Source of the DNA: an uncultured Gammaproteobacteria bacterium
Lineage (GTDB): Bacteria; Patescibacteriota; Microgenomatia; UBA8517
DNA length: 64,000 nt
Direction: 5' to 3'
NCBI GenBank assembly: GCA_964583685.1
Contig: CAZOVJ010000002.1
Span: 213,862-277,861 of the forward strand
Of this stretch, positions 10,225 through 32,857 are shown in pieces. The position numbers and the translations under genes are program-made. Every line of letters begins with the position of its first letter. Position 1 is the stretch's first letter. The notes beneath the pieces were generated by a model. It saw only the letters and a list, made by a program, of their open reading frames with translations, made no database searches and was not told where the DNA came from.

Positions 10225-11991
10225 TTAAAAACAGAAATATTCCTCGGGTCTAACGTAGACACCGTTTATGGCAAACTCCAAGTGCAAATGAGTGTTTCCT
10301 CCTAGATTAAATAACTCTCCTATTTTTGCCCCACTGGGGATACTCGTCCCGTAATTCGCTTCCCTTTTAAGGTGGGTGAAAACGATTGTGTATCCCCTAT
10401 TGGAGTCAAGATAAACATGGCTCCAGCCGGCTCTACCATTAGAAAAGCTGTTGTCATATACCCAGATGGTTTCTTCACCCAAGACCCGGGGAGCGAGGAC
10501 ATCAGTCGAGCCTGAAGGGAAAACATCGATGGCATAACCATAATAGGAGCACCTATTTGCCTGGCCTGAGCAGATGTTTCCTGGGCTGTTCAAAGGGCCC
10601 CGGCAGCCAGTTCCCTGAGGGAGAGCATAGCGACAACTACCTCCAACCCTTATCCAATACTCATTACTGCCGTGGCCAATTTCCCGTCCAGAATCATAAG
10701 AACCGTCAAGAGCCCCACGCATTCTTCCTCCGGGAACAGGACAATCAATAGGCGGATTGCCGATGACCACAGAGGCATTTGTGCTGGCAGTTGCCCCTTT
10801 CTGTTCTGATGTGTTGGCCGTGACAGTCAGGGAGTCAATAATGATTGAGTTATCATATTCTGTCCCCAAATTTAGTGAGTAGGTAAAGGTAAAACCTTGA
10901 CCCGGAGAGATTGTTTGAGGAAGATCGTTAAGTGCTTCTATCTCTGGATTTGGTTCGGCTGCATTACTTTCTCCGATGACTTTATATTGGTTTCTGATTT
11001 GAATATTGCTTAAACTTCCTTTTTTAGCGTAAATTTTTACTGTATATTCTACTGGGCCAAAACTGGGACAGCCAGCCCTGTTCATACAATTAGGGTCTGC
11101 GGTTTTCTCAATACCGATATAAGGAGAAGTGATTGCTCCTGGGACAAATGAGGGTGCTGGGGGGACAATGTAGGCGCCGGAATTGATGATAAAGAGAATG
11201 ACGGCGACGATGAGGGGGATAGCTACTATTACAACAACTGCAGGAGCAATCATCGCTCCGAGTGCCGCGCCCAATAAACCGGGAAAGGCGACTAAAATTA
11301 CACCAAGGCCAATAGCCGCTCCTGGAACCCCGCCGACCACAGCCAGGCCAGCGGCAGTTAGGCCAGCCATTACCTTTTTCCAGTTACGCTTGAGCAAGGG
11401 AATAACCTTGGTGGCAACCTGACTAGCTAGGGCACCAACAATTGGCGAGGCGACAATTGAAGCGGCAATCCCGGCAATCTTTGAAGCCAGAAACTGAACT
11501 CCTTTTTTAAGAAGTTTAGCCAGTCCTGTTTTAGCTAGTTTTCCAATACCTTTTTTAACAAGACCGCCAACGACTTGTTCTCCGGCCATCCTTCCTACTT
11601 CACCAAACACTCCTTTTAGGGGTATTGGGTTCTGCTTGAGGTTGGTTTCTAGTCTAGTATTAAAGTTTTCTTTCCAGACATTGTGAACATCTGTATTAAG
11701 CTCAACCTTGCTGGCTTCAATATCGGCGCTATGTTGCTGGTATTCATCTAAAAGGTTCAAGACTTCTGGTTCTGGCCTGGCCGGCTGGCCCGGGACTGGT
11801 CGGGAGACCTCTTTTTGGAGCAAGCCTTGAATTTGTTGAAGTTTCTGATCAGCGGGGATGTTCTCAGGGATTGTTCCTCGGAAAAGGGAAAGGAATGTTT
11901 CTTTTGAAACTCCCCGGTATTCATCTGACTGGGGACGAAGACGGAAAAAGCTGGCGACATCGATTAAAAATTGGGCTAATGACCTTTTCAT
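10225..11991 (-). CDS. Membrane protein with C-terminal M23 (LytM-type) peptidase domain; putative T4SS-associated cell-wall hydrolase
   Basis: N-terminal coiled coil, Gly/Ala-rich multi-TM core, C-terminal YAIDVF...GNTHLHLEF (HxxxD and HxH M23 motifs); adjacent to VirB4. Confidence 0.6.
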   Translation of the reverse strand: MKRSLAQFLIDVASFFRLRPQSDEYRGVSKETFLSLFRGTIPENIPADQKLQQIQGLLQKEVSRPVPGQPARPEPEVLNLLDEYQQHSADIEASKVELNTDVHNVWKENFNTRLETNLKQNPIPLKGVFGEVGRMAGEQVVGGLVKKGIGKLAKTGLAKLLKKGVQFLASKIAGIAASIVASPIVGALASQVATKVIPLLKRNWKKVMAGLTAAGLAVVGGVPGAAIGLGVILVAFPGLLGAALGAMIAPAVVVIVAIPLIVAVILFIINSGAYIVPPAPSFVPGAITSPYIGIEKTADPNCMNRAGCPSFGPVEYTVKIYAKKGSLSNIQIRNQYKVIGESNAAEPNPEIEALNDLPQTISPGQGFTFTYSLNLGTEYDNSIIIDSLTVTANTSEQKGATASTNASVVIGNPPIDCPVPGGRMRGALDGSYDSGREIGHGSNEYWIRVGGSCRYALPQGTGCRGPLNSPGNICSGQANRCSYYGYAIDVFPSGSTDVLAPRVLGEETIWVYDNSFSNGRAGWSHVYLDSNRGYTIVFTHLKREANYGTSIPSGAKIGELFNLGGNTHLHLEFAINGVYVRPEEYFCF

Positions 11992-13766
11992 TTTGTGATA
12001 AGTCGATATTCCTCTTGGGAGGAGACAATTTTAATGGGTGCATGATGGGGTCCGGCAAAAAGAATCCCCTCGCCAATATTGGCGGCCATGAGTAATTGTT
12101 TTTCTCCTTGAGATAAATAGAAAACCTCACCCACTTTGTCAATGGCAGCAGGAGATTGCTTTAAGAGGAGTTGCATGGCTGAGTTGGTAAGAATTGCCTT
12201 GCCAATATCTTGAGCCAGGAAATCTTCAACATCTTGGGTAATGGTTGTTAATCCTAGAGAATATTTTCTGGCCCGTTTGACCACAGACCAAAGAAATTGG
12301 GCCGAGTCTGGAAACCTCATCATATGCCAGGCCTCATCAACAACCAGCAGTCTTCTTTTTCGCTCTTTTTTGATTTTTGTCCAGATAAAATCAAGAATGA
12401 TGAACATGGCGATTGGTCTTAAGACATCCTCGAGCTCTCTAACAGAAAAGACGGTAAAAGGATTTCGAATATCAATGTTCGTGTGCTGGTCAAAAATTCC
12501 CACAAAAGAACCTTTGACAAATTTTTCAATTCTAGCGGCCAGGTCAAGGGCTTCTTTTGTTTCCATGCCGATTAAAACTTTGTAAAGATCTTCCATCAGG
12601 GGTGGCTCTTTGCTTTGGCTGTTCGGGTCCTGGGTGATCCCCTTTGCCTTATAGGAGGCAACCAGAGCTCCATCAAGTAACGCTTCTTGAGAGGCGGTTA
12701 GCTGGCCCATGATTATCTTAAGAAGAGAATGGAGAGAAAGGATTTTCAATCCCAGTTGATTTTCCCCCGCTTCATAGATCTGGGAGAGACCAAAAGGATT
12801 AATTTTAGAAGGAGAGGAAAAAGAGAAGGAGATAAATTCGCCTCCAACAGCATCAGCAAGGTTTTTATATTCACTTTCCGGGTCGATGACGATTATCTCT
12901 GTTCCCAACATCAAAGACCTTAAAGACTCAAGTTTGACAAAAAAGCTCTTCCCCGCCCCGCTGGTGGCAAAGATGCTCATATTTGAATTCTCCAAAGAGA
13001 ATCTGTCAAAAATAATAAAGGACTCATTTTGAGAATTGATTCCGTACAAAACACCGCTGTCACTTGAAAGTTCAGCCGAAGTAAAGGGAAAGGTTGTTGC
13101 CAGAGAAGTGGTGTCCATGTTGCGGGTGATTACCAGTTTATCTAAGCCGAAGGGGGCGGTTGAAAGGAAACCCTGTTCCATGTCCAGCGTTGCCTGTCTG
13201 GCCACAACCATTAAAGACCCCAGGGTTGATTCAACTTGACGAGTAAGTTGATTGAGTTCCTCTAAAGATGAAGCAGGGATGGTTATATAAAAGGAAAACT
13301 CAAAAAATCTCTCTACCCCCTTAACCAACTGTTCTTGTAAAACTTTGGCATCTTCCAGTTTTGCCTGGGTTGATGGGTTGGCAATTTTACCTCTTTGTAT
13401 ATCAGTAGAGATTTCCGCCTCCATTTCAGCGATTTTACGTCTGAGATCATCGAGGACGCCTTTTCCCTCAACTGGATGAATATAAAAGGAGATATCCAGG
13501 GAGGCGTTAAAGTTGATTATCGGTTCCAACCAACCAGGGGAGACAAATCTAGGATAGCCGGCCATGAACAGGGTTCGCAGATAAACATCACCAATCTTTA
13601 TGTAGCCAAAATCAACCTCCATCTTTTCCGGGGCGATTAAATCTAAAGAATGGAGAAATTTTTGTTCAAAGGCAATCAAAGGGTCAGCGATTTTTGGCTT
13701 TTCCACTATGGGGGCAGGAACCGGAGTTGTTCTTTTCTCAACAGGCTTTTTTTTAGGCAGTTTCAT
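11988..13766 (-). CDS. virB4: VirB4/TrbE/CagE-family conjugative ATPase (C-terminal ATPase part)
   Basis: Walker A SGAGKSFF, Walker B LLVVDEAWHMM, 592 aa. Confidence 0.8.
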   Translation of the reverse strand: MKLPKKKPVEKRTTPVPAPIVEKPKIADPLIAFEQKFLHSLDLIAPEKMEVDFGYIKIGDVYLRTLFMAGYPRFVSPGWLEPIINFNASLDISFYIHPVEGKGVLDDLRRKIAEMEAEISTDIQRGKIANPSTQAKLEDAKVLQEQLVKGVERFFEFSFYITIPASSLEELNQLTRQVESTLGSLMVVARQATLDMEQGFLSTAPFGLDKLVITRNMDTTSLATTFPFTSAELSSDSGVLYGINSQNESFIIFDRFSLENSNMSIFATSGAGKSFFVKLESLRSLMLGTEIIVIDPESEYKNLADAVGGEFISFSFSSPSKINPFGLSQIYEAGENQLGLKILSLHSLLKIIMGQLTASQEALLDGALVASYKAKGITQDPNSQSKEPPLMEDLYKVLIGMETKEALDLAARIEKFVKGSFVGIFDQHTNIDIRNPFTVFSVRELEDVLRPIAMFIILDFIWTKIKKERKRRLLVVDEAWHMMRFPDSAQFLWSVVKRARKYSLGLTTITQDVEDFLAQDIGKAILTNSAMQLLLKQSPAAIDKVGEVFYLSQGEKQLLMAANIGEGILFAGPHHAPIKIVSSQEEYRLITK

Positions 13767-14445
13767 TCTGGGAATTTTCTCCTTTCTTTATGACTTTTAT
13801 GGGTTGGGGATTATATGTTTCGTAAAAAAGGTTTATTAATTGTTCTGTTGTTAGCTGTTTTAATTTAAGCCCCAAGCGACCGGCTTGTCTGATGATATGG
13901 TCACGTTTTGGGTAAAGGGCGATTTTTGCCTTTTTAATAACATAGTTTTTGGGAAAGGGAAGCGGACCAGATTTTTTGGTTGTTGCCAGGAATGATTTTG
14001 TTATTCCCAATTCAAGGTTGGAGAAGGGGATAATGATGAAAAACCTTTTGCCCAAAACATTTTTCTTTTTGATTGTTTCAGAAATGAAATTTTTATAACC
14101 AGCCATGATGACTTGAAGCTTGGGATTGCTGATTTTCTGGCCTGCTTGGTCAAGGAAGGATAAATAATTTGAGATATCCTTTCTTTGTGAGCGAATGAGA
14201 ATTTGAACAGAAAAGGAAAGGCTGTTTAGAAATGCAGCATAGGAAACAATTACCGCCTGCTGTTCCTTTTCCGACAAGAGACCGAAGTTAAGGGAAGTTG
14301 ATTCAAGAACCAGAGCAGCCCCACCGTTCTTAAAAAGAACAATGTTTTCCAGAACATCGGCTATGGGTAGCCCCTTTTGGCTGGTGGAAGAGATGGGTCT
14401 ATCAGGGATGTTCAGTAAAGGTATTTTTAGGTTTTTAATTGACAA
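13753..14445 (-). CDS. VirB4 N-terminal-domain-like protein (separate ORF overlapping virB4 by 14 nt)
   Basis: 230 aa, ...FKNGGAALVLESTSLNFGLLSEKEQQAVIVSYAAFLNSLSFSVQILIRSQRKDISNYL... resembles the N-terminal region of Gram-positive-type VirB4 proteins; 230+592 aa gives a full-length VirB4. Confidence 0.4.
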   Translation of the reverse strand: MSIKNLKIPLLNIPDRPISSTSQKGLPIADVLENIVLFKNGGAALVLESTSLNFGLLSEKEQQAVIVSYAAFLNSLSFSVQILIRSQRKDISNYLSFLDQAGQKISNPKLQVIMAGYKNFISETIKKKNVLGKRFFIIIPFSNLELGITKSFLATTKKSGPLPFPKNYVIKKAKIALYPKRDHIIRQAGRLGLKLKQLTTEQLINLFYETYNPQPIKVIKKGENSQNETA

Positions 14446-15430
14446 CTTCTACGCTCCTTTCTCTGGCCTTGGCCTTGACGGCAATGGGCGGGATTATTGA
14501 GCCCTTGGCCTCAAATTTTAGAGGGCTAAAGATTAATCCTTCTTTCTCCGTTATCAATTCATAGGTGCCGTTAATCAAGGGAGTTAGGGCTAAGAAATGA
14601 CCAGCCTTGTTGGTTTTAAATGCCCTAACCGGCCGGCCTTGGGCATCTTTTATTTCCAATATCGCGCCTTCAACTATCTTGGCCTCAGGGGTCATTACCT
14701 GACCAACTACAGTATTTGGTCTGGTTGGTGGATTGGGAGGGGCTGCTTCAAGGGAAAACTGGGGCAACTGAGCGCCGATTGCTCTTTGCCCCTTTAGAGT
14801 TTGTTCAACCATGGTTGTTTGCGGCTGGATGACGCCCACCTGGGCTGGGGCTGATGTTTCTTCAACAACAAAACCGGCCTTAGGTGGTTTAGGTGATTTA
14901 GGAATGGGTATTGTTTTTTGGGGAACCTGGACCGTTTTTTGTGGGGCAGAAGGGAGAATAGAGGTTAAGAGGGCGGTAATCTTAGAAAGAAAAGATTGTT
15001 CAGATGTTTCCAGCTTGGTTAGAAAAGGACTTTTCAATTGGGGCAGGGTTGCCAAATAAGTTTCGGCCGCTTTTTCTCCATGGGGGATGATTATTTCTTC
15101 TTTGGGAGCTGGTCTTTCTTCTCTAAAGAAAATTGGTGGCTTTTTACTTCCTCGCCAAAAATAGAGGGTTGGTGAATAAACAGACCTAAAAAAGGCGATA
15201 ATCCATTTTTCTAAAGACCTTTCTTGAAAGGGTAAAAAGGCCAGGGCTGCTCCCAGAAGGGCAAAAAACAAAATAGCCGGCCATTTAATTATCGGATGGA
15301 GAGGGGAGGCATAGAACAAAAGGGAGACCAAACAGCCCCCGGCAAGCTGAAGAAATTGCTTTAAGGTCATGTCTCCTACCAAGCGAAATTGGTAAGAAGA
15401 GATTTGTTGCGGGACAGGATGCTGCTCCAT
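14435..15430 (-). CDS. PrgI/VirB3-like two-TM protein fused to Pro-rich linker and carboxypeptidase-regulatory-like beta domain
   Basis: N-term LKQFLQLAGGCLVSLLFYA...WPAILFFALLGAALAFLPF (2 TM, PrgI-like); C-term GAILEIKDAQGRPVRAFKTNKAGHFLALTPLINGTYEL (CarbopepD_reg-like); directly upstream of VirB4. Confidence 0.4.
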   Translation of the reverse strand: MEQHPVPQQISSYQFRLVGDMTLKQFLQLAGGCLVSLLFYASPLHPIIKWPAILFFALLGAALAFLPFQERSLEKWIIAFFRSVYSPTLYFWRGSKKPPIFFREERPAPKEEIIIPHGEKAAETYLATLPQLKSPFLTKLETSEQSFLSKITALLTSILPSAPQKTVQVPQKTIPIPKSPKPPKAGFVVEETSAPAQVGVIQPQTTMVEQTLKGQRAIGAQLPQFSLEAAPPNPPTRPNTVVGQVMTPEAKIVEGAILEIKDAQGRPVRAFKTNKAGHFLALTPLINGTYELITEKEGLIFSPLKFEAKGSIIPPIAVKAKARERSVEVVN

Positions 15431-17722: not shown

Positions 17723-19468
17723 ATGTCTGAACAAGGAGAAGGACCGGAGATAATACCTGCTGGTGGGTCGTGGAGCCCGGAGACAATAAAGAGGACAGCC
17801 GAGGCAACAAAGGTTAAAGGCTACGGCCCCATTCGCCCGGGAGGGGAGAAGGAGCAAATCCCGCGTATAGAAATTGATACAGGCCCCCTGGCAGACCAGG
17901 TAAAGGAGTTAATAAAAGGCCAGGAGGGTTTATTGGCTACTTTTGAAGCTCAACGTTTATCAACTGAGCAGCTTCTTGGGCTCTCACAAAAACAGAGTGA
18001 TGAATTAGTCAGAAGTTTGCAAAAGTTGCCGACCAGTCAAGAACGAGCACGGTGGGTGGACGTAGAATATAACCGTCTATTTTATACAAGATTTACTCCC
18101 AACATCGAGCCAAGATTTTACACAGAGATTTCCGATCCAGAAGAGAGAGCATTGTGGGACGCCAGATGGCAACTTGCCCGGGCCGCTTACTTTAAGCTGG
18201 CAACAACCGCCTTTCCCGATAAGTATGTAGAAAATGCAGACATTCAGCTTTTAAGCAATGAGCAGCTGGGGAGGCTTTATAAAATGCCCGGGGTTAAGCC
18301 AATGCTAAAGGCGTATGCAGAGGCAATAGTTGGAAAAAGAAAAGTGGTTGTTGAGAAGGATGGTGAAGACGAGACAATAACAATCTGGGATTGTAAAAGC
18401 ATGGCGGATTTTGAAAAATTCCGGACAAAATTGAGAGGGGAAAGTTTATCTATTGATGAACAGATGAAGGATGCAGTAGAAAGGGAAATAGAGAAACGAG
18501 AGCGTTCGGAATCAAGAAAGCTTAATGAAAGAGAAAGAAGAGAAACCAGAAAGCTTTTGGAAAAGGAGGCGGATGCGGTTGCCTTTAACCTATTTTGGGT
18601 TTCTAATCAAATAGAATCCTCTAATAGTCGTTATTCTGATGCCGGTAAGTTTCATAGATTACCTGGCGGAATGGCCTCACTGGAATTTTGGAGTGTGATG
18701 CATCCACAGGAGAGATTTGAGATTAAGGTCGAGCATTCTCAGAATTGGGGAGCGTTTAGTACTTGGGGAATTGAACAAATAGAAAGATTTAAAAATGAGG
18801 TGGGTTTTGACGATGATGATAAGGATAATAAGATAGAATTTCAAGCCGCTCCACGAGATAAATATTGGGAAAGGGGTCCAACAACAGAGCTTCCCGAAAA
18901 AAAGGGTAAGGTTTATACAATTTATGCCCCAGAATGTTATCCGATACTCACTTGTAGAAGTCTTTTTGAACATACCCGAGAGGAGGGGGGGAGTAAAAAA
19001 ACACTTTTGGAGCGCTTCTCAAAGGGCGGAGATGTAATCTGGGGAGATATTGGGGCAGACGCAGCAGTAAGGTGGCTTACCAGTAAATTTAACAAAGCGG
19101 TACCGCTTCTTGAGTATTATAATCCCGGAAAACCGTTCGAAAGGCGAGATTTCGGTTGGGGAAAGACATGGGCAGACCCTTTGAAAGAATTACTCGAAGC
19201 CCGTTTGAAATTGAACAAGGCCCTGGAAGGCCCCAAAGGGAAAGAAAGAAAGGAAGGATCCATACTGGGGATAACCCACCAGACCTATCACAACCTAAAA
19301 GTTTGGGCCATTTATGCTGCTCATGGGGGTGTGGCCTTTCCAGACAAAAGAGAACCGACACTAAATCTACCGGGTCTTCCGGGGAATGAGCAATTAATAT
19401 TAGGGAGGGCGCTGCGCCACGAAAAAGTTGAATATTTGGATATGCATGAAGGCTTCAGAATAGAATAA
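17723..19468 (+). CDS. Hypothetical protein (581 aa, charged coiled-coil middle, W/G-rich C-terminal region)
   Basis: Long ORF immediately downstream of the zinc-ribbon protein; no recognisable motifs. Confidence 0.5.
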   Translation: MSEQGEGPEIIPAGGSWSPETIKRTAEATKVKGYGPIRPGGEKEQIPRIEIDTGPLADQVKELIKGQEGLLATFEAQRLSTEQLLGLSQKQSDELVRSLQKLPTSQERARWVDVEYNRLFYTRFTPNIEPRFYTEISDPEERALWDARWQLARAAYFKLATTAFPDKYVENADIQLLSNEQLGRLYKMPGVKPMLKAYAEAIVGKRKVVVEKDGEDETITIWDCKSMADFEKFRTKLRGESLSIDEQMKDAVEREIEKRERSESRKLNERERRETRKLLEKEADAVAFNLFWVSNQIESSNSRYSDAGKFHRLPGGMASLEFWSVMHPQERFEIKVEHSQNWGAFSTWGIEQIERFKNEVGFDDDDKDNKIEFQAAPRDKYWERGPTTELPEKKGKVYTIYAPECYPILTCRSLFEHTREEGGSKKTLLERFSKGGDVIWGDIGADAAVRWLTSKFNKAVPLLEYYNPGKPFERRDFGWGKTWADPLKELLEARLKLNKALEGPKGKERKEGSILGITHQTYHNLKVWAIYAAHGGVAFPDKREPTLNLPGLPGNEQLILGRALRHEKVEYLDMHEGFRIE

Positions 19469-19649: not shown

Positions 19650-21311
19650 TTATTGTTTTTTAAGCCCCAGCAGCCTCCTGGCTGTGCGGGCGATAGCAAT
19701 CTTCCGGCCCACATCTTGTCCAGCGCCTCTCTCGCCTTCTTCTAAGGCCTGAATTCCCATTTCTGCACCGTATAAACCTCCCCATTTACCCACCTGGCGG
19801 GATGGGCCAAAAGTTTCTCCTATTGCCGCACCGAAGGGGAAGGGTTTGCCTTCAATAAGCGAGCGAATCAAATTTCCGGCAGAAGGAACAAGGAAAAGAA
19901 TGACCAGAGAGACAAGAAAACCCACAAGAGCGGGGCTTCCCCAAAATCCCGGAAGTGAAATAAGGTCCGAAGAAATTGTGTTGTTGCTAAGATCAAAGAG
20001 ATCAAGGCCGCTGCTGCTAAATGGCCCAAGCTTAAGAGGAACTGTTGCCCAAAAGAAGTAGTGAGATAGAAAGAGCATAATAATAATCGTTGGATAGACA
20101 GCAGCATTGGCAAGCAGGTTTTTTAGCCAAGAACCAATTCCTCCAAAGCCAGGAAAGGCACCAAGAAGTAGGATTAAAGGGCCGGCAATTATTAAGAGGA
20201 GAAGGTTGATAAAGGTTTTAACTTGGAGCCAGACGATACGAATTACAGCGACAAGCAGAGCAATGAAGATTAATAGGAGCATTACTAAACCCATGATAGC
20301 CCCGACGACCGCGCCAGCCCCCATCGCATACCCCGCTCCTATGATTGCAGCCCCCCCGACAAGAGGCACAGTAGCGGCAATCAACAATGAGAGGCAAATC
20401 GCAAGGAGAGAGGGGCCTCCTATCATTTCTTGAATTAGCCTTCCCAAATCGAGATAGCTGATATCTGTGCCAACAGATTTCACACATACTCCTACTGCCG
20501 CGACGACAACATAAGAGAGGTCTATTACAAGACCGGCAATAGCATAGGAGAAAGCAATTAAAATCAAGACAAGTATTAATCGGGGGAGGGCAGATTGAAT
20601 GGTGATTACTGTTTGGGGCGAGATTTTGACCCGGAACATAATCATAAAGGCAATAGCCACAAAAACAAGAACCATTAAGAAGTAGGCTATATTACTGGTT
20701 GCCTTCCAAAGGGACTGAATGGGTTGGAGGTTTCTAAAACCGTAGCCTTGGGCACGGGCCTCAGGGATGATGTGGAGACGCGAGGCTGCGTCAGCCAGAT
20801 ACTGGACACCCGAGGCAGGATGATTTGTTGAAAAGGAATCACCGACAGCGGCCAAGGTGAGTATTGGCCCTAATGAAGGGAGAGATGATTGATCAGGAGA
20901 CTCTGTGTTTTCTTGCTGATTTCCTATTAAACTTGGAACGATTACATTTAAACAGTCTCTTACCATCTCAAGATTACCGCTTTTACCTTCGGCCAAACAC
21001 CTGCTTACTTCCTCGTCGTTGGCAATTATTGTTAATGAATGTCCTATCCAGGCAACCTGGGCATAGGTATAGCGCTCGCCGAAGATTTCAGTTGGGTTAT
21101 CCGGATCAAAGACCCTGAGAACAAAATCGGCAAAATCTGGATTATACCAGGGCCTTGGCTCCTCCTGAGCCCTGGCAACGGACACGGTAAAAGAAATCAA
21201 GAGAAAGCAGGCAAGGAGAATCGAGACAAGCAGTTTTTTGGGCATAGCAAAATTATAATAACATATCTTATCGCCCAGGGGGGAGATGACCTTCGTCAAT
21301 CCACATTGCAA
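19650..21311 (-). CDS. VirB6/TrbL-like polytopic membrane protein
   Basis: Signal/anchor, periplasmic N-domain, at least 6 TM in Gly/Ala-rich core; location next to pilin array and SLT protein. Confidence 0.45.
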   Translation of the reverse strand: MQCGLTKVISPLGDKICYYNFAMPKKLLVSILLACFLLISFTVSVARAQEEPRPWYNPDFADFVLRVFDPDNPTEIFGERYTYAQVAWIGHSLTIIANDEEVSRCLAEGKSGNLEMVRDCLNVIVPSLIGNQQENTESPDQSSLPSLGPILTLAAVGDSFSTNHPASGVQYLADAASRLHIIPEARAQGYGFRNLQPIQSLWKATSNIAYFLMVLVFVAIAFMIMFRVKISPQTVITIQSALPRLILVLILIAFSYAIAGLVIDLSYVVVAAVGVCVKSVGTDISYLDLGRLIQEMIGGPSLLAICLSLLIAATVPLVGGAAIIGAGYAMGAGAVVGAIMGLVMLLLIFIALLVAVIRIVWLQVKTFINLLLLIIAGPLILLLGAFPGFGGIGSWLKNLLANAAVYPTIIIMLFLSHYFFWATVPLKLGPFSSSGLDLFDLSNNTISSDLISLPGFWGSPALVGFLVSLVILFLVPSAGNLIRSLIEGKPFPFGAAIGETFGPSRQVGKWGGLYGAEMGIQALEEGERGAGQDVGRKIAIARTARRLLGLKKQ

Positions 21312-23889
21312 CTCCGTGACAATAGGTTATCCCGGCCCCCCAGCGGATCACTCCGATATCGACGTAGCCCCCACGTTCCCTGGTTTCCTCATCGCTGCAG
21401 CCAATAGTTCCACCATAGTTGCCAACATAAACCATGTCTCCCCCAAGAGTCACCTTTCCATTACTGTCATACTCGAGCTGGATGCCCCGGCCGCCATATG
21501 TAGGGTCAGAGGGATTAAATCTACCGTATTTTTTCCAAAGTAAGATGCGCGCAGCCAGTTCCAGAGCATCAGAGGCTTCGCAAGGGTTTAAGAAATTGGG
21601 ACTGTTGGGGTTCTGTTCGTCTGTTGTCGTCACGCCATAGTAGGCACCGCGACCGATTTGTACAGGACCGCAGTAAGAAGAGCGTAGTTCGTAGGTATCC
21701 CATTCCCCACAGAGCTCACCCTTTTTCGAGGGTTTACATGGGCCTGATTGGCTACCATTGCTTTCGATTTGCCAGATAGCCTCAAGGACTTCTGCTGGCA
21801 CATCGTATCTGACGGCAATACCGGCCAGGTCCTGAGAAATCGGATGAGGAAAGCCAGAGATTGTTTCGCCAAAGTCTTGAGGCCGTAAAGCCTTTTGGAT
21901 TCCCTTTAAAAAATATTCATAGATTCCACCAAGATGGGGGATAAAAATATTAGCCCTTTCACCAGACCTGTTATTGGATGGATTTCCGGCCAGAACTTCG
22001 ACACCATCAGTAGTTGATGAATAACGGGCAGTAGTTACTCCAGGCAAATCCATAAGCTCAACTTGCTCCAGAAGACCTTTGGGATAAAGTCGTTTATAAA
22101 TAGATTGTTCCCCGGCCACCAGCTTGTCCCAGACCTCGTCAGCCTTGGGCGTTCTGGTATAAACAGAAAGAGCAACATAAACATCTTTTTCGCAAATGTC
22201 TACAGTGGACTGACGCCGGCATTGATCAATTTCCTCTTGGGAAGGAGGGGTACCCCCGGGAAGTCGTCCTTGAAGTTGGTGAATACAATTTCGATACCTA
22301 CTTTCATCAAGTTCTGCCTCATCAGCCCCACCGAAATCACAAGTAAATTTGGCGGTATAACGGATAGTTCCGGACATTTGTTCATCTGTGTCTTCGTTTG
22401 CAGAGATCGCTTGTTCATGGTATTCACCAAAAAGGTCGTCGCCTGAATTCCAGCGGGCATTTTCTAAATCGCAATAATCGGTGTCATAAAACTTGACCTT
22501 TTCCGTCAGTACTCCCAGGGTTTCTCCTCCAATAGCGGCACTATCTTGGTCACTTCTGACCTTGGGTATCTTGGGTTTTTTGCCTGGAACATAGGTTTTT
22601 TGCAGCAGATTGGCTAAATCGGAAACCTCTTCCATGTGGCTAAAGTAAAGATTGTGGAAATCGCTATCTGGATAATCCTCGTAGTCTGGGGAATCAGGTT
22701 CAAAAGTTACATCCGTAACCTCGACATCGTTCTCAAGATTAATTTCCGGCTGGCTGGTGGCTGAAAGGTCAGCAATAACCTGTCCCTTTCTATTCTCGGT
22801 GGAGGAATAGGGGATATAGGGAAAGAGGTAGGAGAAAAGGCGTCGGTCACTAAGAGGATCGTCGATGCAGAAGTAGATTGGTAACCCAAAGACTCCAAGA
22901 TGGGGAGTACAAACTTTTCCTCTCCATCTTAGATAATCCCGCCAGTAATCGATAAAATTTGAATAATCTTCTTCACGAGGAGGGAGATAGTTAATCCATT
23001 CGCTAAGGCGATATTTGTTTTCAGAGAAAAAGAGGTTTGCAAATAGAGTCTGTAATGCTGGAGCTAGATTTTCACCAACCAAATTTTTGGTTGCCGGTTC
23101 ATAGCAAGGAACCTGGACTTCAGGATTAAGCGGAAAAAGAGCGCCGGGCTCTGCGGTGCAGACGACTATTTGATTATGTCTAAAAGAAGTAACCTCGAAT
23201 TCCTGGGTTAGACGGGCATTGGCTATCTGCTGAAATCGTGCATCGGCTTGAACGCGCCAGGGAAGGAGTTTGTTTAAGGGGCCTGAATAATCGATGAGAA
23301 GATAGCTTATTTGCTCAGGGGTATAGGGACTATAAGAGCTGACAGGCCAATTGCCAAGGGACAATTCTTCTGGCCGGTAAAGGGACCCGTTCAAATACCA
23401 ACTGACATATTCGTTCATCCTGGTGGATGGACCAAGCATATTTCCACCTAGATCACCCATCCCTTCTTGACTGTTTGGCACGAGCTGGGTGTTGCCCATG
23501 ATGGGCAGTTCGGCGTCGGATAAGCCTATGGAGACATAGGCTGTTTCCTGGGATTCGTAATAGCAGGTTCGCGAGCCATCAGGACCTATTTTGCAGCTCC
23601 CGGTAGCTGGGGTAACGGTGAAGGTTTTTTTGATAATCAGGTCATTGCCGCAATAAAGCTTGGTTTCTTTAACTTCCCTATCACAGGGGCTGGCTTGGTA
23701 GGGCCGGAGAGAATGAAACTCGTCATCATCAGTTATTTCGTTTGTTTCATTACAGGGAACATAAGGCTCAGGAACCTGGGCAAAGGTAGAAGCAGGGAAT
23801 ACCAAATGCGAAGTACCAAATGCGAAGTACCAAATGAAGATAGTTATCGTATCTCGTATCTCGTATCTCGTGGTTTTGGGCAGACTCAT
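21268..23889 (-). CDS. Large secreted Cys-rich surface protein with C-terminal lytic-transglycosylase (SLT/VirB1-like) domain
   Basis: 873 aa; signal peptide; ...VPAEVLEAIWQIESNGSQSG... SLT-type catalytic ES motif; many Cys. Confidence 0.55.
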   Translation of the reverse strand: MSLPKTTRYEIRDTITIFIWYFAFGTSHLVFPASTFAQVPEPYVPCNETNEITDDDEFHSLRPYQASPCDREVKETKLYCGNDLIIKKTFTVTPATGSCKIGPDGSRTCYYESQETAYVSIGLSDAELPIMGNTQLVPNSQEGMGDLGGNMLGPSTRMNEYVSWYLNGSLYRPEELSLGNWPVSSYSPYTPEQISYLLIDYSGPLNKLLPWRVQADARFQQIANARLTQEFEVTSFRHNQIVVCTAEPGALFPLNPEVQVPCYEPATKNLVGENLAPALQTLFANLFFSENKYRLSEWINYLPPREEDYSNFIDYWRDYLRWRGKVCTPHLGVFGLPIYFCIDDPLSDRRLFSYLFPYIPYSSTENRKGQVIADLSATSQPEINLENDVEVTDVTFEPDSPDYEDYPDSDFHNLYFSHMEEVSDLANLLQKTYVPGKKPKIPKVRSDQDSAAIGGETLGVLTEKVKFYDTDYCDLENARWNSGDDLFGEYHEQAISANEDTDEQMSGTIRYTAKFTCDFGGADEAELDESRYRNCIHQLQGRLPGGTPPSQEEIDQCRRQSTVDICEKDVYVALSVYTRTPKADEVWDKLVAGEQSIYKRLYPKGLLEQVELMDLPGVTTARYSSTTDGVEVLAGNPSNNRSGERANIFIPHLGGIYEYFLKGIQKALRPQDFGETISGFPHPISQDLAGIAVRYDVPAEVLEAIWQIESNGSQSGPCKPSKKGELCGEWDTYELRSSYCGPVQIGRGAYYGVTTTDEQNPNSPNFLNPCEASDALELAARILLWKKYGRFNPSDPTYGGRGIQLEYDSNGKVTLGGDMVYVGNYGGTIGCSDEETRERGGYVDIGVIRWGAGITYCHGVAMWIDEGHLPPGR

Positions 23890-23896: not shown

Positions 23897-24220
23897 CTAT
23901 TGGTAAATTTTGAATCTAAGAATTCCTGTCACTCCGGTGAAGTCAGCAATGAAGCGGAGGACGAGATAAGAAAGGGCAATAAAGACCAGGCCGGCGATGG
24001 CATAGGTCAGGGTCTTTTTTGCTCCTTCTAAGGCTTTTGGTTCTCCAGCGGCAGTGATGAACTTGAATCCTCCGAGAACAAGCATGATAAAAAAAACAAT
24101 CCCTACTATTCCCAAGATGGCTGAGATGACATTAGCAAACGAACCTTCAAGGCCCTCTAATGTAGCAATGCCACCTTGGGTTTTAATCACTGCTGCCTGA
24201 ATTGTCTTTGCCCTTAACAT
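23897..24220 (-). CDS. VirB2/TrbC-like pilin paralog 1
   Basis: Signal-like N-term, two hydrophobic helices, shared motif LVLGGFKFITAAGEPKALEGAKKTLTYAIAGLVFI. Confidence 0.5.
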   Translation of the reverse strand: MLRAKTIQAAVIKTQGGIATLEGLEGSFANVISAILGIVGIVFFIMLVLGGFKFITAAGEPKALEGAKKTLTYAIAGLVFIALSYLVLRFIADFTGVTGILRFKIYQ

Positions 24221-24318
24221 AATTGCACCCCAGCTATGTGTTGTGTTCTAAGTTTAGCCCAAGAAGAGAACTTCAAGCAAGTTGCTGGTTCTCAAAATTT
24301 TTATAATTCGAGTAGTTG

Positions 24319-24702
24319 TTATTGTATAGAAGGAATTGTAAGTCCCCCAAGAATATCAATGCCAAAGAAGGTTTCTATTAATTTAATAATTGCCCAGGCG
24401 GCAAAGACGATGACCAAGCCAACCAGGGCAGCGGTAATCTGGTTTCTGGCCGTTTCTGTTTGAGCCTTATCTCCACCAGAGACTATCCAGCGGATTCCTC
24501 CGACGACTAGGATGAAGAAGAAGACAACTGCGGCAACAACCATGGCAAACTTGATAGCACCTGATATGATTCCGGGGACGGTGATTTTTGACAAATCTAC
24601 AGCCAAACCCTCACCACTAGGCGAAAGGTCTATTGTTGTATTTGTATCGGATGTACCACTACCAGCTGCTGCGTGGATTATATTAGACAGAAAACTAAAC
24701 AT
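24319..24702 (-). CDS. VirB2/TrbC-like pilin paralog 2
   Basis: Motif LVVGGIRWIVSGGDKAQTETARNQITAALVGLVIVFAAWAIIKLIE. Confidence 0.5.
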   Translation of the reverse strand: MFSFLSNIIHAAAGSGTSDTNTTIDLSPSGEGLAVDLSKITVPGIISGAIKFAMVVAAVVFFFILVVGGIRWIVSGGDKAQTETARNQITAALVGLVIVFAAWAIIKLIETFFGIDILGGLTIPSIQ

Positions 24703-24716
24703 TTCCTTAGCTAATA

Positions 24717-25058
24717 TTATTGAATCTTCAATGGACCGATGTCAAGGGTTAAAATGTTGGTGCCAAAGAAGGATTCAACAAGCTTGATAATGGCAAAGCT
24801 GGAGAAGAGAATGACAATACCTACCAGGGCATTAACTACTTTCCCGCGGGCTTGTTCAACCGCTGCTTTATCACCGCCAGAGGTTATCCACTGAATGGCG
24901 CCGATAACCAGGATAAAAAAGAAAATGATAACGCCAATGACAAAGATTAAACCAACTAGATTAGGAAGTAACCTTTGAAGAAATCCGATTCCTCCCTCTG
25001 TCTGTAAAATTTCTTGGAGATTGTCAGAGAGAGCGGGGTTTGTAATCGGGTTTTCCAT
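24717..25058 (-). CDS. VirB2/TrbC-like pilin paralog 3
   Basis: Motif LVIGAIQWITSGGDKAAVEQARGKVVNALVGIVILFSSFAIIKLVE. Confidence 0.5.
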   Translation of the reverse strand: MENPITNPALSDNLQEILQTEGGIGFLQRLLPNLVGLIFVIGVIIFFFILVIGAIQWITSGGDKAAVEQARGKVVNALVGIVILFSSFAIIKLVESFFGTNILTLDIGPLKIQ

Positions 25059-25059
25059 T

Positions 25060-25455
25060 TTAGCCTCCCATCCTACCGATTGTGTTAATGATTTCTGCTG
25101 GGTTAAGAATCAAATCAAAGCCAAGGATTTTACCAATCAGCTCGATGAGGAAAATGGCGGCAATAACAATGACCAGCCCGACCAACCCGTTGGTAATACT
25201 TTTTTTGGCTGATTCCATGGCTGCCTTGTCTCCACCAGCAGCCATGATACCGATAGCACCGATGAAGAGGATAATGATAAACCAGATGGCGGCAATCATG
25301 GTCATGATGCCGATAGTGCCGGATAGGACTTTGTTTAAAAGCCCAGGAGCTGCACTTGCCTCCTTTCCTTCAAGGCCAAGGGGGCCTATTCCCCTAAGCA
25401 TGTCGTCTGGATAAAGCTTAATCTCTGCTAACAATTGTCCTGATAAACTATTCAT
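25060..25455 (-). CDS. VirB2/TrbC-like pilin paralog 4
   Basis: Motif LFIGAIGIMAAGGDKAAMESAKKSITNGLVGLVIVIAAIFLIELI. Confidence 0.5.
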   Translation of the reverse strand: MNSLSGQLLAEIKLYPDDMLRGIGPLGLEGKEASAAPGLLNKVLSGTIGIMTMIAAIWFIIILFIGAIGIMAAGGDKAAMESAKKSITNGLVGLVIVIAAIFLIELIGKILGFDLILNPAEIINTIGRMGG

Positions 25456-25805
25456 GGTGTAGGTATCGCTGGTTTAAGAAAAGCGGTTGGGTCTCCAAGT
25501 AAAAGCTGGCCAAAGATGGCGGCCAAACTAAAAGAACCGAGAACAACAGCCAGGCCCAAAAGAGTTTGCCAAATCTTGGCCCAGGCACCAGCTATTTTTT
25601 GGGTATCATCACCAGCATTTAAAAAAGCATAGCCGGCCAGAATTAGGTTGATAATCCCGTAAATTCCGGCAACGACAATCAGAAAGTTGAAGATTAGATT
25701 GATAAATTTACCAATCGCTCCACTCTCAACATCGCCGTATTTTGAGGTCATAGTGTCAGGCAGTTTTATTGTGCCAAAGGGACTCTGGCTTAATAGTTTT
25801 CTCAT
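25452..25805 (-). CDS. VirB2/TrbC-like pilin paralog 5 (more divergent)
   Basis: Two hydrophobic helices; LILAGYAFLNAGDDTQKIAGAWAKIWQTLLGLAVVLG. Confidence 0.45.
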   Translation of the reverse strand: MRKLLSQSPFGTIKLPDTMTSKYGDVESGAIGKFINLIFNFLIVVAGIYGIINLILAGYAFLNAGDDTQKIAGAWAKIWQTLLGLAVVLGSFSLAAIFGQLLLGDPTAFLKPAIPTP

Positions 25806-26116
25806 CCGAGTATAGTTGCTCCGGTGAGCAATTCAATTAATCTTACTATCCAATAGGCAGCAAAAACAACAATGAATCCGATAACCGCCCCGGTTATTGC
25901 CTGTTTGCCCTTAGCTGCTTGTTCAGGATTGTTTGTTCCCGCACTCATCATCAAGGAGAAGCCGCCAAAAATTAAAAGAAGAATGAGCAGGATTCCGGCA
26001 ATGGCAATGGCCGCTTTCAGCACCACTGAGACTAAACTGCCAACCCCGGTCAGTTGACTAAGAAAATGACCGCTCGTTCCAAAAAACTGTTGGCCAATGT
26101 CAAAACCCTGCTTCAT
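25802..26116 (-). CDS. VirB2/TrbC-like pilin paralog 6
   Basis: LLIFGGFSLMMSAGTNNPEQAAKGKQAITGAVIGFIVVFAAYWIVRLIE. Confidence 0.5.
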   Translation of the reverse strand: MKQGFDIGQQFFGTSGHFLSQLTGVGSLVSVVLKAAIAIAGILLILLLIFGGFSLMMSAGTNNPEQAAKGKQAITGAVIGFIVVFAAYWIVRLIELLTGATILG

Positions 26117-26120
26117 TTTT

Positions 26121-26435
26121 TTACTGAAAAATACTTTTTATTCCTTCTAATCCAAGAATCAAGCTAGCGGCCTGGGTTATCCAGTAAGCAAGAAAGATGA
26201 TAACAAAGCCAAGAATAGCATAGGTTATCTTGTTTTTTGCCTCCTGCATCCCCTTGGGATCGCCAAGTGAAGTTATCAGTTGAAATCCTCCAAATAAGAG
26301 ATAAAGGAGAACCAAAATTCCGGCTCCGGCAAAAATATATGTAAGCAGGCTACTGATGATGTCGCCGATAGTTCCTCCACCGAACTTAAAACCAGGGATA
26401 TATTGCTGTAGCTTGCCAAAATTGATTCCTTCCAT
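26121..26435 (-). CDS. VirB2/TrbC-like pilin paralog 7
   Basis: YLLFGGFQLITSLGDPKGMQEAKNKITYAILGFVIIFLAYWITQ. Confidence 0.5.
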   Translation of the reverse strand: MEGINFGKLQQYIPGFKFGGGTIGDIISSLLTYIFAGAGILVLLYLLFGGFQLITSLGDPKGMQEAKNKITYAILGFVIIFLAYWITQAASLILGLEGIKSIFQ

Positions 26436-26443
26436 AAGATGAT

Positions 26444-27388
26444 TTAACCTCCTCCGAATCCTGGTAGCCTTAATATATTAACCCCAATTAGTTTTAGAAT
26501 AAAGACTGAGAAAATTAAGAGAATTAGGCCGGCAATGGCCGAGGTCAGAAGCTCTTGGCCGGCCTTTAATCTTTCCGGATTGCCGCTGCAGGTCATGATT
26601 TGGAAGCCGGCAAAAAGTATTAGAAGAAAGGCAATACCGCCGCCAATGCCAATTGCCCAGCGGAGAAAAAAGCCAATAAATTCATTAGTGTCTCCAATGG
26701 GAATGCAACCAATGGCAGTGTTGATACCCGTATCACCATCACAAAATATGTCAGCCTCTTCAGCTACACAAGAGCACGAACCCTCACTGCTACACTCTGC
26801 TGTAGAACCAGAAAGACAATTGTCAGAGTCAACTCCCCAATACCCTCTTCCTGCTCCAGAAAGAGGTTGCAGGGGATCTGCTGGCAAGACATAATATTTA
26901 CAGGTGCAGCTATTATCTGGTTCTACGATGCTGGTCTCTGGCGGTGATCCGCTACAACTGCACATGGTGCAATTGGAATAGCAGGTTACTAGGCCTGGGA
27001 TATCACAGTTGTTCACAGTAATACTACATACCCCAGAAGATCCAATAGAACACTCACAAGTGTTGGGAGAAGCAGGGGTTTCGGCCAGGCAAATAAAAGA
27101 CCCGGCAGTATCGCATTCCTCTTGAGATAGCCCGTGACACTGGGAGCCAGTTCTAAAGCCTTCATTGCAATTGGAAATTAGTGGTACACACCTTCCTCCG
27201 TCCTCAAGAGGTAGCCAGTAACATTGGTAGGTACCGGGGCCTTCTTGAGCAAAGATTTCTTTTGGAGCAAAAACTTGTATCAATAAAAAAAGGGCAGAAG
27301 CTAAAAACAACCTTTTCATAATTTTCAGTTTAGCACAAGGGAAAGAAGTGAGTATAGAGAACTTGCTATAATAAAAGACTGTGGGCAT
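26444..27388 (-). CDS. Cys-rich extracellular domain fused to C-terminal pilin-like module (candidate tip adhesin/minor pilin)
   Basis: Signal peptide, about 30 Cys in N-terminal 220 aa, C-terminus LILFAGFQIMTCSGNPERLKAGQELLTSAIAGLILLIF matches the pilin-paralog motif. Confidence 0.5.
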   Translation of the reverse strand: MPTVFYYSKFSILTSFPCAKLKIMKRLFLASALFLLIQVFAPKEIFAQEGPGTYQCYWLPLEDGGRCVPLISNCNEGFRTGSQCHGLSQEECDTAGSFICLAETPASPNTCECSIGSSGVCSITVNNCDIPGLVTCYSNCTMCSCSGSPPETSIVEPDNSCTCKYYVLPADPLQPLSGAGRGYWGVDSDNCLSGSTAECSSEGSCSCVAEEADIFCDGDTGINTAIGCIPIGDTNEFIGFFLRWAIGIGGGIAFLLILFAGFQIMTCSGNPERLKAGQELLTSAIAGLILLIFSVFILKLIGVNILRLPGFGGG

Positions 27389-32038: not shown

Positions 32039-32470
32039 ATGCGAGTGATTAACAAAAGAGCAAGATTTAATTACCGGCTAATAGATGAACTTGAAACAGG
32101 AATAAGTCTTACAGGTAAAGAAGTGAAGGCAGTGAGAGCTGGCCTTGTTGACTTAACCAGTGCTCATGGAAAAATTTTGCGAGGAGAAGTTTATCTAGTG
32201 GGAGCGGTTATCAATGCTTCTCGGGCCCAAAACTACGACCCTTCGCGTAGTAGAAAACTACTTTTGCATAAAAAGGAGATTGTTTCCCTTCAGAACAAAA
32301 TGAAACAAAAAAAGTTGACTCTTGTGCCTACTGCAATGTATACTAGGGGACGTTTAATTAAGTTGAAGCTAGCTTTAGCTAAAATTAAGCGCAAATTCGA
32401 GAAAAAAGAGACAATTAAGAAACGAGATATAGAGAGAGAAATCGAAAAAGAATTAAGGGGACGTCAATAG
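32039..32470 (+). CDS. smpB: SsrA-binding protein SmpB
   Basis: MRVINKRARFNYRLIDELETGISLTGKEVKAVRAG...: canonical SmpB N-terminus. Confidence 0.9.
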   Translation: MRVINKRARFNYRLIDELETGISLTGKEVKAVRAGLVDLTSAHGKILRGEVYLVGAVINASRAQNYDPSRSRKLLLHKKEIVSLQNKMKQKKLTLVPTAMYTRGRLIKLKLALAKIKRKFEKKETIKKRDIEREIEKELRGRQ

Positions 32471-32816
32471 GTTTCGACGAAAAGCACCTTTAAAAGATTG
32501 CAAGCAGACTTTGGTCTAGAGTCTTAAAAAAAGGCCGAACAAAACAAGCGTCAACGAAAAAAGTTACGCTCCCCAATACGCAGTAGCTTAATTGGGGTGT
32601 TCACCGACTTGTTTCTCGACCGAGCCGGATGGGCATAAACCAGTCGAGATGTAAGATATAGCATGACTTAAGGCCATATCTTAAGATTTTTAAGTCTTAC
32701 TCTGAATTATCCGGCCAACTGGTAAAATTTAGAGGAAATACTAAAGTTGGCAAAGCTTGTAGAGATTTTTTAAAGAACTTATTCGGACGAGGGTTCGATT
32801 CCCTCCGTCTCCACCA
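32457..32816 (+). ncRNA. ssrA: tmRNA (SsrA)
   Basis: 5' GGGGACGUCAAUAGGUUUCGACG pairs with 3' ...GGUUCGAUUCCCUCCGUCUCCACCA (tRNA-like T-arm + acceptor, CCA encoded); internal tag frame ...VNEKSYAPQYAVA-stop; follows smpB. Confidence 0.8.
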
Positions 32817-32831
32817 AGAAAAATTATGCCA

Positions 32832-32855
32832 TCCCGCACATTAGTGCGGGTTTTT
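32832..32855 (+). terminator. Rho-independent terminator after ssrA
   Basis: CCCGCAC-atta-GTGCGGG followed by TTTTT. Confidence 0.6.
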
Positions 32856-32857
32856 GT

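Follow-up and report, generated by a model that had tools for sequence, protein, structure and literature searches.

Eight tandem pilin-like genes

We analyzed a 64,000-nt stretch of DNA (hereafter "the window", whose positions serve as coordinates throughout) that carries, at positions 23897-27388 of its minus strand, an array of eight consecutive open reading frames (ORFs) encoding proteins related to pilins of type IV secretion systems (T4SSs). The ORFs were numbered p1 to p8 in the direction of transcription; listed from p8 to p1, their products are 107, 127, 113, 131, 117, 104, 104 and 314 amino acids (aa) long. A preliminary description of the window, made from its sequence, had proposed eight tandem two-helix genes over this interval, and all eight were confirmed there. 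They are genuine genes, with orthologues of each in the same order across dozens of genomes. The genes, and the parts of the first product, are as follows:

26444..27388, minus strand: p1, the "lead" pilin, 314 aa from M1 or 291 aa from M24; signal peptide, Cys-rich outer domain, two-Cys loop and two-helix module; PF18895 30.5 bits on residues 241-301
27248..27319, minus strand: probable Sec signal peptide of p1, residues 24-47 (MKRLFLASALFLLIQVFAPKEIFA followed by Q), at a hydropathy peak
26744..27247, minus strand: outer domain of p1, Cys-rich, residues 48-215; its 20 Cys fall into three blocks (6, 8 and 6)
26447..26743, minus strand: conserved C-terminal module of p1, residues 216-314, made up of the C216-x11-C228 loop (CDGDTGINTAIGC), IPIGDTNEF..RWAIG, helix 1, the GNPERLKAG loop and helix 2
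26121..26435, minus strand: p2, short pilin-like hairpin, 104 aa; PF18895 41.9 bits; NF045849 36.5 bits; type 2 by position-specific hidden Markov model (HMM)
25802..26116, minus strand: p3, short pilin-like hairpin, 104 aa; PF18895 41.1 bits; type 3
25452..25805, minus strand: p4, the most divergent hairpin, 117 aa; PF18895 17.5 bits; leave-one-out HMM 24.9 bits; NF045849 E = 3e-5
25060..25455, minus strand: p5, short pilin-like hairpin, 131 aa; PF18895 27.2 bits; type 5
24717..25058, minus strand: p6, short pilin-like hairpin, 113 aa; PF18895 32.9 bits; weak TrbC match, E = 0.13; type 6
24319..24702, minus strand: p7, short pilin-like hairpin, 127 aa; PF18895 33.7 bits; 2117 homologues at E <= 0.001
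23897..24220, minus strand: p8, short pilin-like hairpin, 107 aa; PF18895 42.4 bits; type 8

Stop and start codons of neighboring array genes overlap or abut: six junctions are spaced at -4 to +8 nt and one at +14 nt, and p7 and p8 are separated by 98 nt (this last gap varies from about 50 to 1240 nt in relatives). Scanning the operon for promoters and terminators gave counts no higher than the shuffled expectation, and we draw from it no conclusion on internal regulation or on the p7-p8 gap.

Each of the eight products has two strongly hydrophobic C-terminal segments with a polar loop of ~20 residues between them. The seven short proteins, p2 to p8, contain no cysteine and begin with a hydrophilic N-terminal tail of ~29-52 residues that lacks a hydrophobic leader, which occurs in p1 only. 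Their tails are slightly acidic and their inter-helix loops slightly basic. The modules have diverged widely: their identity to the first is 20-31%, and only two columns are invariant across the eight; the closest pair of paralogues is p6-p7 (59% over 64 aa). The long motif that the preliminary description had assigned to the seven short members holds as a consensus, but its full match is confined to the product of p2 (26121-26435). The orthologue group of p4 is strongly conserved around a signature of its own, with the consensus AGYxF.SAGDD.KK..AWAKIWQ.

All eight array proteins match PF18895 (T4SS_pilin), seven above its curated gathering score of 26.6 bits (27.2-42.4 bits) and p4 at 17.5 bits, and the same profile matches all 46 relatives tested. 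When each member was searched with an HMM of the remaining seven modules (leave-one-out), all were recovered, p4 at 24.9 bits and the others at 40-81 bits. As had been proposed, the modules align with one another and with a pilin profile. The NCBIfam model NF045849 ("Mbov_0395 family pilin-like conjugal transfer protein") likewise matches all eight, at E = 3e-9 to 0.035, below its equivalog cut-off of 40 bits (p2 comes closest, at 36.5 bits). PF04956 (TrbC/VirB2) gave no significant match in the array, its single hit being p6 (E = 0.13, 13 bits against a cut-off of 27.9), and among the relatives it matches 2 of 46, at E values of at least 0.044. Two Southlakia PF18895 proteins also match PF04956, at E ~1e-6 (Wang et al. 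Table S2, PMC10633639); they provide the only bridge between the two families, an indirect one.

Features of known pilin classes were also sought in the eight proteins. TrbC/VirB2 pro-pilins have a long cleaved leader ahead of two hydrophobic helices; in the array, two helices are present in all eight proteins and a leader in p1 alone. The N-terminal class III signal peptide of type IV pilins and pseudopilins (G, then F/M-xxxE) is absent from all eight, which have two hydrophobic helices, not one. AlphaFold2 (AF2) models p7 as a confident hairpin with helices at residues 42-74 and 79-113, the mean predicted local distance difference test score (pLDDT) of 10-residue blocks exceeding 90 over residues 51-110. 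The helices are 33-35 residues long, more than a bilayer span requires. A fold search was uninformative, its matches being non-specific; ATP-synthase c-type ring subunits are as similar to the hairpin as pilins are. Hydrophobic hairpins also draw spurious weak matches to many transmembrane (TM) families. On the profile evidence, membership of the array in PF18895 is established and membership in VirB2 sensu stricto is not. For the label "VirB2/TrbC-like" given in the preliminary description, the T4SS_pilin family and the T4SS gene cluster are supported, and direct membership in PF04956 is not.

A fixed set of types and a variable lead subunit

To place the array among its relatives, we assembled 80 loci from species-representative genomes, called their ORFs and searched them with HMMs of the modules. 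Those loci that carry a label all derive from Woesebacteria, Gottesmanbacteria, Beckwithbacteria, Microgenomates or Patescibacteria metagenome-assembled genomes. By this affiliation, the source organism is a Microgenomates (Woesebacteria-like) member of the Patescibacteria/candidate phyla radiation (CPR).

A complete eight-gene array is present in 34 loci, including the window. Across these 34 arrays, the best BLAST match of a subunit in another genome was the subunit at the same array position in 99-100% of the 1122 comparisons made for each position. Median identity between genomes at the same position is 47-65%, versus 31% between positions within a genome; the p1 module (65%) and p7 (~65%) form the best conserved pair, and p4 reaches 60%. 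In degree of conservation, the array subunits match SmpB (50-58%) and exceed the 553-aa and 873-aa proteins encoded next to them (25-41%). Position-specific HMMs trained on 16 arrays and applied to the window and 18 held-out arrays classified every one of these as 1-2-3-4-5-6-7-8 in order, with best-minus-second margins of 28-176 bits (46-164 bits in the window, and 104-150 bits for type 4 in Woesebacteria-type arrays). In total, the order 12345678 was found in 35 arrays, the window's included, and each of the eight types has its own conserved signature.

Judged by these comparisons, the eight types are ancient, with one of each in the same order across Microgenomates genomes, and do not represent a recent expansion. 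Gene conversion among the paralogues left no trace in the window, where no nucleotide repeat exceeds 71 nt (72% identity). The preliminary description had read the array as a paralogue expansion for antigenic or functional diversification and had suggested a check for conversion signatures; given the 99-100% positional orthology, the fixed eight types and the lack of conversion tracts, a lineage-specific expansion for antigenic diversification is not supported.

Departures from the standard arrangement were also recorded. Gottesmanbacteria-attributed loci have a split array (types 1-2, then types 3-8 ~9 kb away) composed of the same types, with smaller classification margins. Split arrays occur in L051, L052, L060, L065, L071, L073, L079 and L081, several of them from Gottesmanbacteria; there, only the lead gene and type 2 remain beside a SpoIID/bPH/SmpB block, the other types being found ~7-9 kb farther downstream. 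L080 has its distal block inverted. A few loci (L036, L045, L046 and L068) contain a duplicated type-1 or type-7 gene, with tandem lead-type pairs at 8840-11993 in L036, 6326-10261 in L045 and 9188-10785 in L068. The largest products of these tandem-lead loci are 482 aa with 46 Cys and 507 aa with 52 Cys. L036 and L045 also have an enlarged, Cys-containing type-2 gene after the tandem lead genes, so outer domains can evidently sit on subunits other than p1.

The lead subunit itself contains 24 cysteines: 20 in the outer domain (residues 56-207), C216 and C228 in the loop, C267 in the inter-helix loop and C18 upstream of M24, 22 of them being extracellular. As first described, p1 joins a signal peptide and a Cys-rich extracellular domain to the module that it shares with the other seven, although with fewer cysteines than the ~30 then estimated. 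Cys267 (26588-26590), in the inter-helix loop MTCSGNPERL, is unpaired and on the predicted cytoplasmic or lumenal face; orthologues mostly have Ser there. The true start of p1 is most likely M24, where an identical 291-aa JGI protein (P0001) begins and where the MKK start is kept in orthologues. M1 is preceded by GAGGGAG, a better Shine-Dalgarno-like sequence than that of M24, which leaves the start codon ambiguous. The leader (MKK...AQ) is kept in 16 p1 orthologues, and AF2 models a helix at residues 2-17 of P0001. Across these 16 orthologues, 34 columns of the module are invariant, both loop cysteines included, and the module helices are modeled at residues 211-243 and 248-278 (P0001 numbering) with a pLDDT of 70-87. 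For the outer domain, the pLDDT is 31-58, and with so unreliable a model neither a fold nor a "knot" can be assigned.

When p1 orthologues are aligned, the leader is conserved, the two-Cys loop invariant and the module 60-90% identical; the middle region is completely variable and consists of different Cys-rich modules, Pro/Thr linkers or Ig-like repeats. The size of this outer domain ranges from absent to ~360 aa, and many genomes are without any; in the eight-gene arrays, the region upstream of the two-Cys loop mostly carries 0, 6 or 12 Cys. Global identity between outer domains (~30%) was discarded as a measure, being at the background level for short gapped alignments, and unrelatedness was judged from explicit cases in which unrelated outer domains sit on near-identical modules. 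For example, between L008 and L002, p2-p8 are 79.5% identical and the p1 module is 82% identical, and the outer domains are unrelated.

A search of 5.8 billion proteins with the outer domain of the window's p1 recovered at full length the identical protein only, the 25 other matches covering the junction and the module alone. An exhaustive HMMER scan of 1.84 billion representatives returned the protein itself and one other match, P0027 (3236 aa), which was rejected as spurious because its non-Cys residues align to the cysteines of the query. The first 6-Cys block of the domain recurs in some other lead pilins; the rest does not. As far as these searches reach, the outer domain of p1 in the window is essentially an orphan.

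Taken together, these comparisons describe the eight types of the window's array as a fixed set, with variation concentrated in the outer domain of p1 alone. Such a hypervariable extracellular domain fits a role in surface recognition. The "disulfide-knotted tip adhesin" proposed in the preliminary description is still a hypothesis. The enrichment of CPR genomes in an MdbA-like oxidoreductase and VKOR (10.1101/335083) makes extracellular disulfides plausible in these organisms.

The secretion gene cluster and its Bacillota counterpart

Downstream of the array, genes for further T4SS components follow on the same strand, in the order VirB1-like, VirB6-like, PrgI, VirB4 and M23, with an interruption between the second and the third. 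The features of this region are:

21268..23889, minus strand: 873-aa protein with 20 Cys and a weak lytic-transglycosylase-like C-terminal motif (..WQIESNG..; SLT_2 E = 0.073)
19650..21311, minus strand: 553-aa polytopic membrane protein with an N-terminal hydrophobic segment, a ~170-aa extracytoplasmic region and ~6-7 TM helices by hydropathy
15498-19468, plus strand: two genes within this interval, one for a 349-aa zinc-ribbon protein and one for a 581-aa protein with no Pfam match
16108-16410: small ORF upstream of the toxin gene
15498-16148: AbiEii-type toxin gene
14435..15430, minus strand: PrgI (VirB3-like) family protein; Pfam PrgI 26.4 bits (cut-off 27)
11988..13766, minus strand: VirB4-like ATPase; Pfam TraG P-loop 1.2e-29, AAA_10, DUF87
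10225..11991, minus strand: membrane protein with a C-terminal M23 peptidase-like domain; Peptidase_M23 E = 1.1e-5 and 26 bits (cut-off 28.7)

In 30 loci, the gene of the 873-aa protein comes immediately after the array; its product may be a VirB1-like wall hydrolase or a component of the envelope. A search for sequence relatives of this protein in the PDB found none, and the SLT assignment is weak. The 5' coding region of its gene contains a perfect 14-nt tandem duplication at 23800-23827 (two copies of TACCAAATGCGAAG), which encodes a repetitive hydrophobic N-terminal segment (...WYFAFG...). The 553-aa protein matches no family in Pfam or NCBIfam and is, by architecture only, a candidate VirB6-like platform; its gene is syntenic in 25 loci.

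The interval 15498-19468, which holds the AbiEii-type toxin-antitoxin pair and the two plus-strand genes, separates the 553-aa gene from PrgI. In two related loci (L005 and L043), the PrgI gene directly follows the 553-aa gene and the T4SS cluster is contiguous; the interruption is therefore local to the window's genome and has the appearance of an insertion that split the cluster. At the other end, the chromosomal origin region is found at 4916-9756, with jag, yidC and rnpA on the minus strand, followed by dnaA and dnaN on the plus strand. The VirB4/M23 end of the cluster begins less than 500 nt from dnaN, and the array lies ~10 kb from virB4 and ~14-19 kb from dnaA/dnaN. With rnpA, yidC, jag, dnaA and dnaN at 4.9-9.8 kb, the system is origin-proximal. 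A Pfam scan of the 47 longer ORFs of the window detected neither a relaxase nor a VirD4-type coupling protein. Within this range, the array shows the traits by which Patescibacteria T4SS pilin arrays are recognized, namely 2-11 tandem VirB2-like/PF18895 genes of ~25% mutual identity near virB4, in a Patescibacteria chromosome without relaxase and coupling protein.

A counterpart of this cluster was found outside the Patescibacteria. A tblastn search of plasmids with p2 matched a gene of a Pontibacillus (Bacillota) replicon that is annotated as Mbov_0395-family pilin-like. The corresponding locus is:

Pontibacillus sp. ALD_SL1 (NZ_CP062975), locus L085, 11743-12655: two tandem PF18895 pilin-like genes

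Gene order in the Pontibacillus cluster (two PF18895 genes, a TrbL/VirB6-like gene, a PrgI/TraL-like gene, a 274-aa ORF, a VirB4-like gene and an M23/NlpC-P60 hydrolase) is that of the window, with the TrbL/VirB6-like gene in the position of the 553-aa gene and the M23/NlpC-P60 protein in that of the M23 gene. A profile-profile comparison (hhalign) of the p7 family with the Pontibacillus protein gave a probability of 97.2% (E = 3e-11) across the loop motif, which supports homology at superfamily level, and the polar-loop motif SGGD(P/K)..E.AK..IT is common to the array modules and the Pontibacillus protein. In each of the two Pontibacillus pilin-like proteins, a signal peptide is combined with a short outer segment containing two Cys, an architecture like that of p1.

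On account of this gene order, profile match and p1-like architecture, the pilin-like gene looks native to monoderm T4SS clusters. What is specific to the Patescibacteria would then be its multiplication into a fixed set, with the leader and the Cys loop lost in seven members. The Pontibacillus genes are hard to square with the frequent assertion that VirB2-type genes are missing from Gram-positive T4SSs, and the link bears more generally on the claim that these systems lack a VirB2 equivalent.

Several other features of the window and of the related loci were noted. A segment at 32039-35057, a few kb from the array, encodes SmpB, transfer-messenger RNA (tmRNA), four tRNA-Ser genes and a tRNA-Arg gene. 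Most related loci carry homologues of SmpB, of a 632-aa membrane protein, of a bPH-domain protein and of SpoIID upstream of the lead pilin gene, with SmpB varying in its orientation and in its distance from that gene. Farther away lies the gene of a large serine recombinase (38148-39785), which overlaps a tRNA-Asn gene on the opposite strand (38115-38187) at the 3' end of the latter and is followed by a low-GC stretch (34-39% versus 41-47% elsewhere), in which ORFs mostly have no Pfam match. The region 38115-48000 may be an integrated mobile element. The window's contig is also present in public metagenome assemblies.

Assembly models and known systems

We consider it probable, though well short of certain, that the eight genes encode pilin-like subunits of a chromosomal, origin-proximal, monoderm-type T4SS, which would form a non-redundant heteromeric stalk or pilus with an exposed, variable lead subunit. 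Each product is a membrane hairpin, in which a short polar loop connects two long hydrophobic helices. Exported through its Sec signal peptide, p1 would have its N-terminal domain outside the cell. This placement of the N-terminus by the leader implies an N-out, loop-in, C-out topology, which homology suggests for the seven leaderless paralogues as well; the topology of VirB2 is known to be N-out/C-out. The acidic tails and basic loops of p2-p8 would be compatible with YidC-type insertion, the route by which ATP-synthase subunit c inserts.

The eight subunits would be co-transcribed, non-interchangeable and non-redundant. If VirB2 systems are a guide, the hairpins may be extracted from the membrane by VirB4 and the VirB6-like platform and polymerized into one heteromeric, envelope-spanning stalk or pilus, composed either of one major subunit with adaptor or minor subunits, or of successive layers. 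The exchangeable, disulfide-rich outer domain of p1 would be exposed, probably distally, and would contact a host cell or a substrate. What the analysis shows is the homology, the hairpin architecture, the gene context, the positional orthology and the hypervariable outer domain; we infer, rather than observe, the insertion route, polymerization, subunit order, tip location and adhesin function of the array products.

With all eight types retained and transcribed together, and with each pilin gene required in its own right in Southlakia, a single heteromeric stalk or pilus is the most economical model. In this organism, whose essential pilin array has already been published (Wang et al. 2023, Cell, PMC10633639), each of six pilin genes (SEML1_0014-0019 of Southlakia epibionticum) was scored as growth-defective or essential by transposon sequencing (Tn-seq; PMC10633639, Table S1). 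The T4SS and pilin genes are essential for the epibiotic growth of the sole genetically tractable Patescibacterium.

Several points weigh against this model. The 80 loci were recruited by similarity to the lead subunit and hence sample one clade, Microgenomates, and the Tn-seq essentiality of the upstream Southlakia genes could partly reflect polar effects. A sequence search of the PDB with the profile of the eight modules returned noise only and no pilins. No structure, proteomics or imaging shows a PF18895 protein forming a filament in a monoderm, and a 2025 review calls the Patescibacteria T4SS pilus hypothetical (PMC12857230).

A more specific version, which we put forward tentatively, is an obligately heteromeric and ordered conduit of eight hairpins, capped or decorated by p1, whose swappable outer cassette would set host docking. 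The cassette, ranging from absent to ~360 aa, would be built from different Cys-rich or Ig-like modules, and the conduit would be analogous to the layered flagellar rod or to a pseudopilus with a tip complex. Its ancestral form would be the pilin-like protein with signal peptide and Cys loop of Bacillota/Mycoplasma conjugation systems. If this version were true, monoderm T4SSs did not lack a VirB2 equivalent.

It is rather unlikely, in our view, that the hairpins instead form or line a membrane-embedded translocon ring or channel, with p1 as an anchored surface protein and no pilus. Such an arrangement would suit the homologues in Bacillota and in the integrative and conjugative elements of wall-less Mycoplasma (NF045849 family), and we know of no T4SS pilus reported in Bacillota or Mycoplasma systems with these homologues. 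Gram-positive T4SSs are generally pilus-less (PMC10633639, PMC12102498), and the similarity of the hairpin to ATP-synthase c-type ring subunits, equal to that to pilins, points the same way (also Wang et al. Table S2). Helices longer than a bilayer needs, the two Southlakia members matching PF04956 and the large extracellular domains of p1 orthologues speak against this arrangement, although none of the three is decisive.

We regard it as improbable that the paralogues are interchangeable major pilins that provide antigenic variation or adaptation to host strains. The low identity within arrays (~25-31%; also PMC12102498) and the duplicated type-1 or type-7 genes of four loci would be expected of alternative pilins, but the comparison genomes keep the same eight types, one each and in the same order, and conserve each type strongly (47-65% across species-level genomes). 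Stop and start codons overlap within a compact operon that lacks conversion tracts and long nucleotide repeats; variation is concentrated in the outer domain of p1 only; and all six Southlakia paralogues are individually growth-defective or essential (PMC10633639). Finally, it could be argued from the modest PF18895 scores (17-42 bits), and from the ease with which hydrophobic hairpins attract weak matches to TM families, that these are unrelated two-TM proteins (e.g., holin- or immunity-like) resembling the pilin profile by chance, a notion with hardly any remaining probability and effectively refuted by the T4SS synteny kept in the same order in CPR and a Bacillota replicon, together with the hhalign match to the Pontibacillus protein and the shared polar-loop motif.

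Returning to the heteromeric stalk or pilus, the fixed set of eight types replaces "variable antigens" by "one multi-subunit machine" as the hypothesis to work from. The outer domain of p1, as the sole freely varying part, becomes a concrete candidate for a determinant of host specificity. The comparative result sharpens the question of which structure the essential Patescibacteria T4SS pilins build.

Conserved, ordered operons of small paralogues whose products are all required and together build one filament or rod with a specialized distal complex are known from GspG-H-I-J-K of type II secretion (and type IV pili) and from the flagellar rod proteins FlgB/C/F/G. The resemblance of the array to these is a functional analogy only: there is no homology, the fold is different, and the window's proteins have no class III signal or prepilin-peptidase motif.

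Compared with VirB2/TrbC/TraA pilins (PF04956) and the archaeal CedA1/TedC pili, the array proteins are likewise small, with two hydrophobic helices and a short charged loop, and are encoded with homologues of VirB3, VirB4 and VirB6; their predicted N-out/C-out topology is that of classical VirB2. They differ from these systems in lacking a significant PF04956 match, a pilin match in the PDB and a specific fold match, and also in that seven of the eight are leaderless, the envelope is monoderm, eight types take the place of one and no VirB5 is present. The PF18895/NF045849 systems of Bacillota and Mycoplasma share the module, the polar-loop motif and the cluster order with the window. There, however, the Pontibacillus cluster has two pilin-like copies versus eight, and seven of the eight window proteins have lost the signal peptide and the Cys loop.

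The VirB2 arrays of Bartonella and Anaplasma resemble the window's array as tandem pilin paralogues, in their case belonging to non-conjugative T4SSs for host interaction (PMC12102498). In contrast to these, the paralogues of the window are ancient, with one per type, positionally conserved and without a conversion signature.

The closest match is with the VirB2-like arrays of Patescibacteria themselves, of which Quinonero-Coronel et al. 2025 (Microb Genom, PMC12102498) reported 441, of 2-11 genes, in 383 assemblies, suggesting antigenic or host-range versatility by analogy with the Bartonella and Anaplasma arrays. Microgenomatia, to which the window belongs, are reported as particularly rich in pilin arrays (PMC10633639, PMC12102498, PMC12857230). 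In common with them, the window has PF18895 genes in tandem (2-11 genes in the published arrays), with ~25% mutual identity, near virB4 and the origin, an origin-proximal T4SS placement as reported, and no relaxase or coupling protein among the 47 longer ORFs scanned. The two differ in that the published view is of sequence-divergent variants, whereas the window displays eight positional orthologue types and one hypervariable outer domain, and in that the VirB4 block of the window is split from the pilin block by the toxin-antitoxin pair and two genes. Neither positional orthology with a single hypervariable outer domain nor the link to the pilin-like genes of Bacillota conjugation clusters was found in the papers searched. 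The window's array is a further case of the published Patescibacteria pilin arrays, and both points, the positional orthology with its single hypervariable domain and the Bacillota link, argue against antigenic variation for this clade.

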